Below, in pieces: positions 2,934-6,842 of a DNA stretch of 64,000 bases (the stretch's first letter is position 1; each line of letters opens with the position of its first letter). This DNA comes from Escherichia phage vB_EcoM_WFL6982. The stretch lies in the sequence record MK373774.1. The stretch is one strand, 5' to 3'. The notes beneath the pieces are model-generated. The model was given only the letters and a program-made list of their open reading frames with translations, made no database searches and had not been told where the DNA came from. Position numbers and translations under genes: made by a program.

Positions 2934-3239
2934 TTAGCACAACGCAGAAGACGAAACCCAAGCACCTTCAGTAATAACGTAACCATTACCTTCACGCTTA
3001 ACATCGCCACCATTATTTTCAATTTCATCTTTCATCCACTGGGATACGATTTCACCCTTAGGATAATAAGTACGACCGCTACCATAATCACCTACAGAAA
3101 ATGATACGGCATATTGGTCTGCGATCTTTGTTGCTTCTTCTTCGATACGTTCAGCTTGATTCAGAAGTTTATAAATTGCATCTGAAGCGGATTTGGCATC
3201 ATTAAACTCTGGTACTTTAATTTCAATAATCTTACTCAT
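2934..3239 (-). CDS. small protein, C-terminal GWVSSSxxC family member
   Basis: 101 aa; TKIADQ..YGSGRTYYPKG and C-terminal GAWVSSSALC. Confidence 0.55.
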   Translation of the reverse strand: MSKIIEIKVPEFNDAKSASDAIYKLLNQAERIEEEATKIADQYAVSFSVGDYGSGRTYYPKGEIVSQWMKDEIENNGGDVKREGNGYVITEGAWVSSSALC

Positions 3240-3595
3240 TTTCTACATTCCTTAATAAAGTTTTCGATTGTTTCATTTTCACGTCTAGCTAGGAGTTCAT
3301 TATAACTAATCATTTGAGAAGCGTAAACCTTTTTATTTTTCTTGTTATGGTTTATAAAATCGTAGTAAAAATAGACTACAGTACAAAAGGATGCGATGGA
3401 TGCAAAGGCTTGGGTATACCGTAAGTCCTGCCATTGGTCTGTGAATCCACCAGTGTTCCCTATAAATCCTAACACAACGCCATCAATAAGAAATCCAACT
3501 AATCCAAAGGCAAATCCCATGCCGGCGCTCATGATAAAAATTAAAATATTCTCACCAAGAGAAGGCCATACGGTTAAGAGTTGAGGCTTTTGCAT
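3236..3595 (-). CDS. small membrane protein
   Basis: Hydrophobic stretch MSAGMGFAFGLVGFLIDGVVLGFIG in the translation; overlaps neighbours by a few nt. Confidence 0.5.
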   Translation of the reverse strand: MQKPQLLTVWPSLGENILIFIMSAGMGFAFGLVGFLIDGVVLGFIGNTGGFTDQWQDLRYTQAFASIASFCTVVYFYYDFINHNKKNKKVYASQMISYNELLARRENETIENFIKECRK

Positions 3596-3933
3596 CTTAT
3601 TTCCTTAACGAATTCCATAGCTTCTTCATATTCATACTTTTTAACAGCTTCATCATACTGAGCTTGGGCTTTTGCGCACTGAACTTTCCACTCGCGAACT
3701 CGAGCTCTGTGATGACGGCCTTGGTGCCAATATCCTGCCCAATTAATAGGCATTAATAAAAATGGTACAATAAGTGGGGCGACGAACATTAATGAAAATG
3801 CTGCATCAGACGATATAACTTTACTAGAATCTAAAACAGCTCCTATAATCATAAAGATTAAAAATGCTAAAGCTAAAATAGGGCCAAATAGTACTTCGTT
3901 TGGGATTAATTTACGTTTGTATTCGTATGCCAA
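3574..3933 (-). CDS. small membrane protein (start uncertain, possibly TTG)
   Basis: Translation has YKRK followed by a hydrophobic helix; first codon in frame is TTG just after a hairpin plus T-tract; no ATG until codon 28. Confidence 0.4.
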   Translation of the reverse strand: MAYEYKRKLIPNEVLFGPILALAFLIFMIIGAVLDSSKVISSDAAFSLMFVAPLIVPFLLMPINWAGYWHQGRHHRARVREWKVQCAKAQAQYDEAVKKYEYEEAMEFVKEIRCKSLNS

Positions 3934-3960
3934 AAAGCCCCAACCTTTCGGAAGGGGCTA
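3934..3960 (-). terminator. stem-loop plus U-tract immediately upstream of the 3933 ORF
   Basis: Minus strand GCCCCTTCC-GAAA-GGTTGGGGC followed by TTTTT. Confidence 0.4.
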
Positions 3961-4010
3961 TGCCTTGCGGCAACCTTGTCGGGGTTCCACCTGCTAAGGC
4001 AAGTGTTTGT

Positions 4011-4102
4011 ACGAAACGCCGGGATTTGAACCCGGTTATTAAGTAGTTGACGCTACTCAATATTTTTAAAAGGCCATATCTCGACCATATCCGAACGTTC
4101 CG
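4011..4102 (-). ncRNA. tRNA-like structured RNA candidate (not a canonical tRNA)
   Basis: Minus strand has a canonical T-arm CCGGG-TTCAAAT-CCCGG and a 7-bp acceptor-like pairing 92 nt apart, but D and anticodon arms do not fold canonically. Confidence 0.25.
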
Positions 4103-4270
4103 TCAAAAACGCTACTCGGCTTACGGCAAAGATATTTCCTCGAATCGATAATTCTGTGCGCCGTTTCTGCTGTGATGTAAGGGGATATTAACAAATCGTA
4201 AAGATTTATTAAGACCAGTCCTTACTCAGGGAACATCAGTCCGACGACTTACCGGTAGCGACCCGGCTTC

Positions 4271-4615
4271 TTATTTTGACATATCATCAATTTGCTCTCG
4301 ACGCCGACGCCATAGATTAATCGCTTCATTAACACATTCGGCGTTTGGTATATGACGGCAATAATATAATGATTCGCGTTTCTGGAACCGATGTTGCAAC
4401 GGGATTTCGTTTAAAAGGTCTTTACGGTCAAAGTATTCAAAACTAGTTAACCCAGAACGATTTTTAAGAAACTTCCAATGTCCGAATTCATTTTGAAAAT
4501 AGACATAATCAGCATGCTGATACAGCGAATTAATTAACCTATCGGAAATAACTGTTTCACGTTCGTTAAAATAAAATGTTAAGTCATGAACTACCAGATA
4601 AATATTGCCTTTCAT
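4271..4615 (-). CDS. hypothetical protein
   Basis: ORF taken from internal Met MKGNIYLVVHD so that it does not overlap tRNA-Arg. Confidence 0.5.
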   Translation of the reverse strand: MKGNIYLVVHDLTFYFNERETVISDRLINSLYQHADYVYFQNEFGHWKFLKNRSGLTSFEYFDRKDLLNEIPLQHRFQKRESLYYCRHIPNAECVNEAINLWRRRREQIDDMSK

Positions 4616-4633
4616 ATTTTCCTCACTTAAAGT

Positions 4634-4709
4634 TGGTGCCTCTAGAAAGATTTGAACTCTCACCATTAACCTTAGAATGATTATATGCTATCCATTACAC
4701 TATAGAGGC
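4634..4709 (-). tRNA. tRNA-Arg (anticodon TCT)
   Basis: Hand-folded cloverleaf: perfect 7-bp acceptor GCCTCTA/TAGAGGC, T-arm GAGAG-TTCAAAT-CTTTC, anticodon loop ATTCTAA, encoded CCA; 76 nt. Confidence 0.8.
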
Positions 4710-5366
4710 AATTAAATTATTTACAATATCTTCTTTATAAACTTCAGCATAATGAAGTTCATATATTTCCCATCCTAATGATTTTATAATATCATGGCGT
4801 TCTTTATAATAAGGGGCCAAAATCTTTTTCTTAGGATTGGAGTAATGTTGGTTTCCATTAACTTCAATAATAATCTTTTTATCTATTAAAGCAATATCCG
4901 TGCAATACGCTCGGTTTTTAACCGGTTGGTATTCTTCAATAAATGAAATTCCATTTTCTATTAATTTAGATTTCAAAAATTCACAAGGCACAGATTTAAA
5001 TTTTGTATTTTTCTTCCAAGGATGTTTATCGGGGTTTTCATTCAACCATTTTTTCCGAGCATTAGATATTTTTATTCTAGCTTCCTCAGAGTGTTCTCTA
5101 CCTAATGAAGCGGCTGACAATTTTTGTCTAGTCTCTTCCGAAATTACTACAGGAACACCAGTCTTTTTAGATACAACATACTGGTTTAAATTACCTGAAG
5201 CTATACGTGCTTTATTCATTGCTGCAATGGCTGATTTAGAACTTTCTTTATACAATTCCAATTTAGGGTTGGATTTACACCATCTAGTGTGGTTAGCCAT
5301 CCATCCTTTAGGTTTATTAGAAATATCAAATTCCATATTACAATGTTTACAAATGCTCATTACCAA
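4695..5366 (-). CDS. putative homing endonuclease (zinc ribbon, NUMOD3 repeats, Vsr/DUF559-like C-terminal region)
   Basis: N-terminal CKHC..HTRWC; tandem ISEETRQKLSAA and HSEEARIKISNA NUMOD3-like motifs; C-terminal IIEVNGNQH...SLGWEIYEL; sits where segB sits in T4 as I recall. Confidence 0.6.
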   Translation of the reverse strand: MVMSICKHCNMEFDISNKPKGWMANHTRWCKSNPKLELYKESSKSAIAAMNKARIASGNLNQYVVSKKTGVPVVISEETRQKLSAASLGREHSEEARIKISNARKKWLNENPDKHPWKKNTKFKSVPCEFLKSKLIENGISFIEEYQPVKNRAYCTDIALIDKKIIIEVNGNQHYSNPKKKILAPYYKERHDIIKSLGWEIYELHYAEVYKEDIVNNLIASIV

Positions 5367-5434
5367 TTATCTCCTATAAAATATAGGAGTATTTATTATT
5401 TGGATAGAGCACTTAATTTACTTCGTTTAAATTA

Positions 5435-5506
5435 CTGGCGCACTTGGACTCGAACCAAGATAAAGGAGTTAACAGCTCCCCGTAATAACCTTTATACGAT
5501 GCACCA
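5435..5506 (-). tRNA. tRNA-Asn (anticodon GTT)
   Basis: Hand-folded: acceptor TGGTGCA/TGCGCCA, anticodon arm GGGAG-CTGTTAA-CTCCT, T-arm CTTGG-TTCGAGT-CCAAG; 72 nt. Confidence 0.7.
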
Positions 5507-5512
5507 TTTGTT

Positions 5513-5587
5513 TGGTGACCCTGGCTGGTTTCGATCCAGCTACCTATCAGTTATGAGCTGACAGCTCTCCCATTGAGCTACAGGGCC
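5513..5587 (-). tRNA. tRNA with CAT anticodon (Met, or Ile if lysidine-modified)
   Basis: Hand-folded: acceptor GGCCCTG/CAGGGTC, D-arm GCTC..GAGC, anticodon loop CTCATAA, T-arm GCTGG-ATCGAAA-CCAGC, encoded CCA; 75 nt. Confidence 0.75.
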
Positions 5588-5666
5588 TAAATAACTTTCT
5601 ATTATGAAAGGCACTTTAGAGCACCTTTGGTAATAGAGGGTATGAATTAATAATAACACATAATTC

Positions 5667-6182
5667 TTAAAGCAAATCAATCATTTTAACAGTTGGCAAA
5701 ACGATTTCTTCTTCAATATAAGCAAATTCAACACATTCAACTACACGCAAGAAATCATAATCATAATATTCAGAAGCATGACCAAGAATATCAATGAGAC
5801 CTTCTGATACTAAATATCCATTCTCATGGAACAGGTCAAATACACGCGATTCGTCTTCTTCAGATTTATTACCAAGGTCGACTTCAATATCAAAGACCTT
5901 TTTAATGAATTCTGGATAAAGCTGGTCTGAGAACAATCCTTCAACCAAGTATTCATAGATTAAAAGCGAACAATCACTGAATAGTGTATTACCACAGTAA
6001 TGTTCAGCTTTAGTGCTAGAATGACGACTCTTAAATTTCTTCAAGAGATATTTAAACTGTTGGAGCTCATGCTCTTCCACTTCAAACAATGTTTTGGTTT
6101 TATAGTTGTCACCATCATTTTCATAGGTAGTGACATCAATTACGTAACCCTTAGGAATTGTACTGCCTAAACAAATATTCAT
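5667..6182 (-). CDS. hypothetical protein (acidic)
   Basis: 171-aa ORF in the early operon between the tRNA cluster and ipI. Confidence 0.5.
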   Translation of the reverse strand: MNICLGSTIPKGYVIDVTTYENDGDNYKTKTLFEVEEHELQQFKYLLKKFKSRHSSTKAEHYCGNTLFSDCSLLIYEYLVEGLFSDQLYPEFIKKVFDIEVDLGNKSEEDESRVFDLFHENGYLVSEGLIDILGHASEYYDYDFLRVVECVEFAYIEEEIVLPTVKMIDLL

Positions 6183-6186
6183 TTAC

Positions 6187-6477
6187 TCACCGTACCATAT
6201 TAATGTAATTATATTCAATGCAACGTAATTTCAAAGGATTCTTGAAAATATCATATTCAAGAGGACCTTTTTCTGTTTCAATAAAGAAATCAAAGTTCAC
6301 ACTATTAAATTTGCGGTCTTCCCAAAGTAATTTAACCTGTGAAGATGAACGGTCGACGTAAACCTTTTCAACTTCAAAGTGGGTCAAAATACCATAGTAA
6401 TCGACTAGTGCTTTAGCTGCAGCTCGGTCGCTTTCATATCCATTCTCAACGGATTTTACCTTAGCATAAAGAATCAT
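6187..6477 (-). CDS. hypothetical protein
   Basis: 96-aa ORF, tightly packed with neighbours. Confidence 0.45.
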   Translation of the reverse strand: MILYAKVKSVENGYESDRAAAKALVDYYGILTHFEVEKVYVDRSSSQVKLLWEDRKFNSVNFDFFIETEKGPLEYDIFKNPLKLRCIEYNYINMVR

Positions 6478-6842
6478 GAATGTTCCACCATTTCAAAGGT
6501 ATGAGCATCAACAATATGATACCAGTCAAAATTTTCTTCTGCGTTTTTATAAATTTCGCGAAGAGCTTCAACAGTTTTTCCTGTAGCAACAAGGTCGTCA
6601 ATACCGCCAAGAGGATAACAGTCACCAGCAAACAGAAGGAAATTAATAGTTTCTGTAGGTTCTGTAGGTTCTGGATGCAGAACACCATTATCATCTACTA
6701 CTTCAAAGAATGTGTAAGAAGGAGTACAAGTTTTAATCCAGGCCCATGCTTGAGCTGCTGAATCAAACGGATTACGGAATAAACGACAATCCGGGTCTTT
6801 AGAAGGATTTGCTTCAAAATCCGCATATATGTGATATTTCAT
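6474..6842 (-). CDS. hypothetical protein
   Basis: Start MKYHIY preceded by AAGGTGAG SD. Confidence 0.5.
   Translation of the reverse strand: MKYHIYADFEANPSKDPDCRLFRNPFDSAAQAWAWIKTCTPSYTFFEVVDDNGVLHPEPTEPTETINFLLFAGDCYPLGGIDDLVATGKTVEALREIYKNAEENFDWYHIVDAHTFEMVEHS

Follow-up and report, generated by a model that had tools for sequence, protein, structure and literature searches.

Orthologues of the T4 small stable RNAs rnaD and rnaC, the latter predicted to be tRNA-like, at the 3' end of a Mosigvirus tRNA operon

What is transcribed, and what is it for, where the transfer RNA (tRNA) operon of Escherichia phage vB_EcoM_WFL6982 (sequence record MK373774.1) runs into a stretch without protein genes? 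Within the window, by which we mean the whole stretch of 64,000 nucleotides (nt) that was analysed, this non-coding stretch covers positions 3934-4270 of the minus strand (337 nt), and we argue below that it carries the counterparts of two RNAs of phage T4, rnaD and rnaC. The original prediction, made from the letters alone, had placed it at 3961-4270, and the stretch proved to be slightly longer. Its view that no open reading frame (ORF) of plausible size lies here agrees with our finding of no minus-strand ORF of 60 amino acids (aa) or more from the end of the upstream ORF (4271) to the point where the next one begins (3933), the sole ORFs within the stretch being two frames with TTG starts, of 42 aa (4066-4194) and 49 aa (3911-4060). 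The location just downstream of a tRNA cluster was likewise borne out by ARAGORN, which called only three tRNA genes in the window, all on the minus strand and upstream of the stretch.

A BLAST search against phage genomes returned 806 records, the best of them, Escherichia phage vB_EcoM_WFK (Mosigvirus), being 100% identical, and judged by its sequence the window belongs to a T4-like Mosigvirus. The corresponding DNA of phage RB7 carries the annotation of a non-coding RNA, rnaD (species II RNA), followed by rnaC, and in T4 (NC_000866) both are annotated as small stable RNAs (rnaD, T4s002, at 71053-71171 and rnaC, T4s001, at 70908-71046). The alignment to T4 and RB7 is colinear from the first base of rnaD through the terminator, as expected from the earlier suggestion of a homologue of rnaC or rnaD, and the stretch almost certainly encodes orthologues of the T4 species 2 and species 1 RNAs. 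The direct comparison with T4 that had been recommended as a check left only two substitutions in the 139 nt of rnaC, one in the long arm and one, G to A, in the T-loop, whereas rnaD is 86.6% identical; on RB7, rnaC aligns at 2625-2763. Among 750 phage records homologous to rnaC, 683 are at 95% identity or more and 67 fall below 90%, compared with 310 below 90% among the 734 records homologous to rnaD, which by these counts is far the more variable of the two. A second copy of the region was sought by BLAST in the rest of the window and none was found. The minimum free energy (MFE) is -50.2 kcal/mol for rnaC (z = -4.43 against shuffles) and -36.7 kcal/mol for rnaD (z = -2.85), and the whole 351 nt reach z = -5.9 against shuffles.

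The rnaC of T4 has the same locus, order, strand, predicted fold, trailer and terminator as the one described here. The T4 operon has eight tRNAs; in the homologous region of the window there are three (Met, Asn and Arg), and a 114-aa ORF lies between tRNA-Arg and rnaD, which abut each other in T4. Transcription in T4 spans the whole tRNA cluster and ends after the species I RNA gene, a primary transcript of ~1.75 kb being the precursor of the tRNAs plus the species I and II RNAs (PMC2330249). The T4 RNAs, RNAC and RNAD, have been classed as late RNAs in a study that included a northern blot with an RNAC riboprobe (PMC9697503), and one template oligonucleotide for that riboprobe has the same sequence as the first 58 nt of rnaC in the window. 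The feature is therefore an already known one, the T4 small stable RNAs having been known since the 1970s and being expected in a Mosigvirus; what the comparative analysis adds is a model of the structure, a kissing loop as a candidate, and evidence that rnaC and rnaD are separable. To the explanation as a whole, namely that this is the 3' end of the operon with rnaD, rnaC, a trailer and a terminator, together with the biogenesis and function proposed below, we assign a probability of about 0.9, its parts being graded separately where they are discussed.

Homologues of rnaC were gathered by BLAST plus two pattern scans of IMG/VR, and 18 distinct sequences were aligned with MAFFT (alignment A4) and folded with RNAalifold, which found compensatory changes in 21 of the 46 pairs that it predicted. 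Once the two central acceptor positions were included as pairs, the structure so specified had 93.9% of its cells paired and compensatory changes in 21 of 48 pairs; slid partners gave 38-47% of cells paired, and 0 of 500 shuffles reached the values of the specified structure. A covariance model (R1) built from the MAFFT alignment of the 18 sequences finds a single copy in the window, at 4007-4148 (161.7 bits), and homologues in Tequatrovirus, Mosigvirus, Karamvirus, Moonvirus and Tegunavirus, as well as in Gelderlandvirus, Winklervirus, Kanagawavirus, Marfavirus and an Edwardsiella phage. The second IMG/VR scan, whose anchors were the rnaC 5' end and T-arm, returned mostly unrelated loci, from which the model confirmed two new homologues (L056 and L063). 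An alignment fitted to the model (A7), with 28 distinct sequences that represent at least 10 genera, has 92.5% of its cells paired and compensatory changes in 32 of 48 pairs. On this model we are close to certain that rnaC is a tRNA-like RNA in which the D/anticodon half has been replaced by two hairpins foreign to tRNA (Table 1).

Table 1. Features of the operon end and of its upstream neighbours, in the direction of transcription (positions in the window)
Feature	Position	Strand	Remarks
tRNA-Met	5513-5587	-	ARAGORN
tRNA-Asn	5435-5506	-	ARAGORN
223-aa ORF	4695-5366	-	between tRNA-Asn and tRNA-Arg, position of T4 segB
tRNA-Arg	4634-4709	-	ARAGORN
upstream ORF, 114 aa	4271-4615	-	ATG at 4615, good Shine-Dalgarno; phrog_3355; RB69ORF150c-like
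rnaD (species 2 RNA) orthologue, ~120 nt	4155-4274	-	colinear alignment to T4, RB7 annotation
rnaD 5' hairpin, GCCGG-GUCGCUA-CCGGU	4251-4267	-	stem and 7-nt loop invariant in 14 diverse sequences
rnaD apical hairpin	4180-4225	-	approximate bounds; hypervariable part
spacer GAAUUA, 6 nt, rnaD to rnaC	4149-4154	-	alignment to T4 annotation
rnaC (species 1 RNA) orthologue, 139 nt, predicted tRNA-like	4010-4148	-	137/139 identical to T4
rnaC acceptor stem, 5' strand, nt 2-8, CGAUUCG	4141-4147	-	pairs with 4012-4018
rnaC 3-bp helix AGG/CCU, nt 9-11 with 76-78	4138-4140 with 4071-4073	-	invariant; flanks long arm
rnaC long arm, nt 15-73	4076-4134	-	59-nt irregular hairpin at D-loop position; covariation
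rnaC long-arm apical loop UUGACG, nt 43-48	4101-4106	-	proposed kissing partner of 4047-4052
rnaC unpaired GG, nt 74-75	4074-4075	-	candidate equivalent of tRNA G18-G19
rnaC helix B, nt 87-112	4037-4062	-	10-bp stem, 6-nt loop CGUCAA (4047-4052); 9/10 pairs compensatory
rnaC T-arm, nt 114-130	4019-4035	-	5 bp + loop UUCAAAU; 100% cells paired, 2/5 pairs compensatory
rnaC acceptor stem, 3' strand, nt 131-137, CGUUUCG	4012-4018	-	then discriminator U (4011), conserved ACAA
first 3' trailer hairpin, CACUUGC-CUUA-GCAGGUG	3988-4005	-	conserved in T4, RB7, Dhakavirus
second trailer hairpin	3962-3971	-	transferred layout
intrinsic terminator of tRNA/rnaD/rnaC operon, GCCCCUUCC-GAAA-GGUUGGGGC then UUUUU	3932-3958	-	directly before next ORF (start 3933)

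The acceptor stem is formed by the two ends of rnaC and is stacked beside the canonical T-arm. Its third pair switches between A-U and G-C (10 and 18 sequences, respectively), and its two central positions (pairs 4 and 5), which are U.U mismatches in most sequences, become U-A and C-G in Tegunavirus. The T-arm that the original prediction had read as CCGGG-TTCAAAT-CCCGG is present on the minus strand. As for the 7-base-pair (bp) acceptor-like pairing described along with it, its strands given as 92 nt apart, CGGAACG (4096-4102) and CGTTTCG (4012-4018) can indeed pair across 91 nt, but this is not the conserved acceptor: none of its pairs is compensatory, the third is broken in 10 of 18 homologues, and the break falls at the very column where the terminal acceptor stem is compensated. 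Covariation rules out this internal pairing, the true stem being that of 4141-4147 with 4012-4018. No CCA is encoded in the rnaC of the window, which has ACA instead. Marfavirus rnaC (L082-L084, Klebsiella) ends in GUCCAA, that is, the discriminator U followed by an encoded CCA, and in all other genera the 3' end reads GUACAA or GUUCAA.

It had been noticed, correctly, that the D and anticodon arms do not fold in the canonical way; in their place the model has a 3-bp helix with a 59-nt hairpin, and a 10-bp stem closed by a 6-nt loop. The long arm shows compensatory changes in 15 of 16 basal pairs and in 5 of 7 apical pairs, and in Gelderlandvirus, Marfavirus and Kanagawavirus its sequence has been replaced and its pairing kept. 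The 3-bp helix is joined to helix B by an A-rich, unpaired linker of varying length, and helix B is separated from the T-stem by 1 nt. The description tRNA-like, which the original prediction had extended to the whole stretch, thus holds for rnaC, with its acceptor stem and T-arm, and not for rnaD, which has neither.

UUGACG (4106-4101), the loop at the tip of the long arm, is exactly complementary to the loop of helix B (CGUCAA, 4052-4047). Across the 28 distinct sequences all 168 of 168 cells of this pairing are paired and no one-sided change occurs, compensatory double changes being found in Marfavirus (UUGGCG/CGCCAA) and Tegunavirus (UUGAUG/CAUCAA). The two arms of rnaC are probably joined, on these comparative grounds, by a 6-bp kissing interaction, and pairing with each other would explain why both loops are invariant; the contact could equally be intermolecular and form a dimer, as the comparative data fit both arrangements. 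We know of no prior description of such a 6-bp pairing between the rnaC arms. A second candidate contact involves the unpaired GG beside the 3-bp helix and the T-loop residues U120 and C121 (4029 and 4028). The GG is changed to CG in three sequences that have G at the equivalent of T-loop U55, so that G.U becomes C-G, and the pair of G with the C56 equivalent is invariant; this is suggestive, although weakly, of an elbow of tRNA type, because the change in the three sequences may be a single event. A scan of mutual information for further tertiary pairs was dominated by the split between two long-arm clades. Pairing of the rnaD 5' loop (CGCUAC) with GUAGCG in rnaC was also considered and was dropped, the loop being equally invariant in phages without rnaC.

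When rnaC is set against known RNA classes, it has the 7-bp acceptor stem made from two ends (nt 2-8 with 131-137) and the 5-bp T-stem with a 7-nt T-loop that mark a tRNA, and it lacks the D-arm and the anticodon arm with a 7-nt loop and stays below the thresholds of tRNA finders. ARAGORN called neither a tRNA nor a transfer-messenger RNA (tmRNA) in the stretch, and the Rfam tRNA model (RF00005) scored 13.9 bits (E = 4.6) where its gathering threshold is 29, the T-arm being the only part matched; the rnaC model, for its part, weakly matches genuine tRNAs. Scans of 3000-6500 and 3925-4275 with Rfam 15 in E-value mode found no family at its gathering threshold and no match to YrlA-type families, the only other match being to isrK, with 16 of the 50 bits required and on the wrong strand. 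The covariance-model scan that the original prediction had put forward as a check would have misled, since Rfam holds no rnaC or rnaD family; the absence of a match does not count as refutation for that reason, and RNAC has been shown in T4 by northern blot (PMC9697503).

With canonical and type II tRNAs rnaC shares the acceptor stem, a T-arm with a UUCRAAU loop, the discriminator, the location in tRNA arrays and possibly the elbow contact; it differs in being 139 nt long, in having no D or anticodon arm, in its two U.U mismatches and in that CCA is found only in Marfavirus. The tRNA-like domain of tmRNA resembles rnaC in that the ends form an acceptor next to a T-arm and the rest replaces the anticodon half, but rnaC has an A-U or G-C pair where tmRNA has G3.U70, has neither tag frame nor pseudoknot ring, and is much smaller. 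YrlA and other tRNA mimics are non-coding RNAs with a tRNA-like module that is handled by tRNA enzymes, as we propose for rnaC, the difference being that the ends of YrlA form a Ro-binding stem and not an acceptor stem.

The first nucleotides of rnaD lie within the upstream gene, the TAA stop (4271-4273) of the 114-aa ORF overlapping rnaD nt 2-4. The basal stem of rnaD is invariant in the 14 diverse sequences, and the outermost pair of its 5' hairpin covaries (A-U, G-C and G-U). Its apical hairpin occurs in different phages as three unrelated allele types, each of which can fold by itself. T4 rnaD has the same apical allele type as here, and its 5' 48 nt and 3' 25 nt are colinear with, and nearly identical to, those of the window; the 3' end is CACCA in T4 and RB7 and CACAG here, and in T4 the gene is flanked by a tRNA 3' end on one side and the rnaC 5' end on the other, whereas here it follows an ORF stop. 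Because it abuts this stop and not a tRNA, the 5' end of rnaD cannot arise by tRNA 3' processing as in T4. When BW-1, a T4-like phage, adapted to a semi-permissive host, one single-nucleotide polymorphism (SNP) was common to all three evolved lines, and it lies in rnaD (PMC12685909); from the coordinates in that paper we infer a position near nt 73, within the apical hairpin. When the whole 351-nt precursor is folded to its MFE, the GAAACG that lies at the rnaD 3' end (4155-4167) pairs with CGUUUC in the 3' acceptor strand of rnaC (4012-4018), and phages that have rnaC and no rnaD show CGUUCC in place of CGUUUC. Such an alternative pairing could affect the order of processing.

The two RNAs also occur apart. 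In at least seven genera rnaC is found without rnaD, usually with one tRNA ending 4-7 nt ahead of it and another beginning a few nt behind; in Karamvirus and Gelderlandvirus it lies between tRNA-Trp and tRNA-Gly, and tRNAs are its direct neighbours in Winklervirus, Tegunavirus and Marfavirus as well. In Dhakavirus (JS10 and AnYang) rnaC is absent and rnaD is joined directly to the trailer, and Gaprivervirus likewise has rnaD only. Since each occurs without the other in different genera, rnaC and rnaD are, as far as genome comparison goes, independent modules, rnaC behaving like a tRNA gene in arrays.

It is reasonable to suppose that rnaD and rnaC are cut from the long operon transcript, a step that we consider likely. 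Host RNase P would recognise the minihelix of rnaC acceptor stem and T-arm and make the rnaC 5' end, thereby freeing rnaD, and the rnaC 3' end would result from an endonucleolytic cut in the trailer followed by trimming, as for the neighbouring tRNAs. Excision of this tRNA type fits the position of rnaC in other genera, 4-7 nt after a tRNA and mostly directly before another. With regard to function, we tentatively suggest, and would not call it likely, that rnaC works in trans as a tRNA look-alike, either occupying a tRNA-recognising factor or being acted on by it; such a factor could be a host enzyme that processes or modifies tRNAs, or a defence nuclease directed at them. rnaD, a structured RNA in its own right, would have an accessory role specific to the host, and both RNAs would be dispensable in laboratory hosts; viable T4 deletions of the whole tRNA region were reportedly described in the 1970s-80s. 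The host-specific role of rnaD is hinted at by the convergent BW-1 SNP (PMC12685909), which is the sole functional hint. More speculative still is the idea that the rnaC family is a tRNA mimic whose two-arm module, locked by the kissing loop, serves as a decoy or adaptor for a tRNA-recognising host factor, for instance a defence nuclease or a processing enzyme, while the rnaD hairpin is under host-driven diversifying selection.

Several points weigh against this account. The steps attributed to RNase P, RNase III and RNase E are taken over from T4, for which they were reportedly shown in the 1970s-80s by the Abelson, McClain and Apirion laboratories. The fit of rnaC to RNase P is no better than plausible, because rnaC has no encoded CCA, a C1-G72 pair, two U.U mismatches in the acceptor stem and an annotated 5' U lying 1 nt outside the stem. 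The ends of rnaC and rnaD in this phage are those of the T4 annotation, carried over, and the kissing interaction depends on just two compensatory events. The pair counts from the 28-sequence alignment are somewhat inflated by its having been fitted to the model, the MAFFT result being independent. Five of the 18 sequences of alignment A4 owe their inclusion to a pattern scan alone, one that demanded the helix-B loop, AAAAU and UAAC, so that the invariance of these elements in those five is partly a matter of ascertainment; the sequences obtained by BLAST are free of this bias. Finally, reviews give the roles of both RNAs as unknown (PMC3014915).

Alternatively, one or both of rnaC and rnaD might be base-pairing small RNAs (sRNAs) directed at mRNAs of the host or the phage, with a seed in the hypervariable hairpin of rnaD or in the single-stranded AAAAU linker of rnaC. 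Both RNAs are abundant, discrete and non-coding, three unrelated apical alleles are what would be expected of a specificity element, and a convergent adaptive SNP falls in rnaD, by inference near nt 73. We nevertheless think an sRNA role unlikely: the two most conserved loops of rnaC are already accounted for by their mutual pairing, the presumed processing leaves no module of the Hfq type (a U-rich 3' end), and according to a 2010 review T4 had as yet no regulatory RNA acting in trans whose function was characterised (PMC3014915).

A tRNA-like RNA that sits among tRNAs could also be a decayed tRNA gene without a function of its own, kept because its acceptor and T-arm still supply a processing site that parts the neighbouring RNAs, rnaD being in that case a leftover stable leader fragment. 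Whole genera (Dhakavirus and Gaprivervirus) do without rnaC, T4 rnaD fills exactly the interval from a tRNA 3' end to the rnaC 5' end, and ARAGORN takes one variant of rnaC for a tRNA-Lys of 94 nt whose extra arm is long, suggesting descent from a type II tRNA. A decaying gene would, however, hardly preserve arms foreign to tRNA through compensation at 29 pairs (32 overall) in at least 10 genera, or keep two 6-nt loops complementary through double changes. Moreover, rnaC is at least 95% identical in 683 of 750 genomes, whereas the rnaD hairpin and the flanking genes diverge freely, and the core of rnaD is invariant even in phages without rnaC, all of which makes decay a rather improbable origin.

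The same ARAGORN call, a 94-nt tRNA-Lys(ttt) in Escherichia phage vB_EcoM_G4507 (L008 650-743), would at face value make rnaC an odd-shaped tRNA that can be charged, for example a tRNA-Lys(UUU) with a long variable arm and the internal 7-bp acceptor, and CGGAACG/CGUUUCG is perfect in T4-type sequences. The call is triggered by a 1-nt deletion in the A-run of rnaC and uses the internal pairing; it is a mis-annotation, which may recur in other records. ARAGORN makes no such call in the window, T4, Karamvirus, Tegunavirus or Marfavirus, the tRNA model of Rfam stays at 13.9 of the 29 bits needed, the internal pairing is broken without compensatory change just where the terminal stem compensates (10 of 18 homologues), and the supposed anticodon region is an unpaired linker of varying length, so that a chargeable tRNA is very improbable. 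Equally improbable are small proteins encoded by the 42-aa and 49-aa ORFs, even though these exist, are annotated as coding sequences for hypothetical proteins in vB_EcoM_WFK and many relatives (MK373775, PV648364 and others) and match phrog_24262 (E = 3e-33) and phrog_28391 (E = 4e-30), for both have TTG starts, overlap the small stable RNAs annotated in T4, of which RNAC was checked by northern blot, and have no Pfam match, the substitutions track base-pairing and not codons, the Gelderlandvirus frame stops within 5 codons of the rnaC start, and in other genera the locus lies between tRNAs that are a few nt apart. The two PHROG entries are probably collections of ORFs over-called on RNA genes.

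The reading of the stretch as rnaD and rnaC bears on annotation, because most T4-like genomes leave these RNAs unannotated or mis-annotate them as hypothetical proteins and occasionally as tRNA-Lys, and over-called ORFs on them have probably seeded two PHROG protein families. Both RNAs are missing from Rfam, and the comparative models could seed an RNA family. If the model is true, rnaC would define a widespread family of structured RNAs in T4-like phages of Enterobacterales, with at least 10 genera. For the function of the two RNAs, a question about 50 years old, the model offers targets for mutation, namely the acceptor stem, the long arm, the kissing loops and the rnaD hairpin, together with the independent gain and loss of rnaC and rnaD.

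The terminator of the operon has its homologous site annotated as a terminator in G4507 and PhAPEC2. Its hairpin contains two U.U mismatches here (GCCCCUUCC...GGUUGGGGC), compared with a perfect 9-bp stem in T4 and RB7 (GCCCCGACC...), and the mismatched variant is also found in other Mosigvirus-type sequences; because of these internal mismatches a promoter and terminator scan missed it. Further upstream, the 223-aa ORF is unrelated to SegB (BLASTP E = 2.1). It has weak matches to DUF559, NUMOD3 and homing endonucleases, and may represent another homing endonuclease in the position of segB. The 3' end of this ORF overlaps the first 15 nt of tRNA-Arg.

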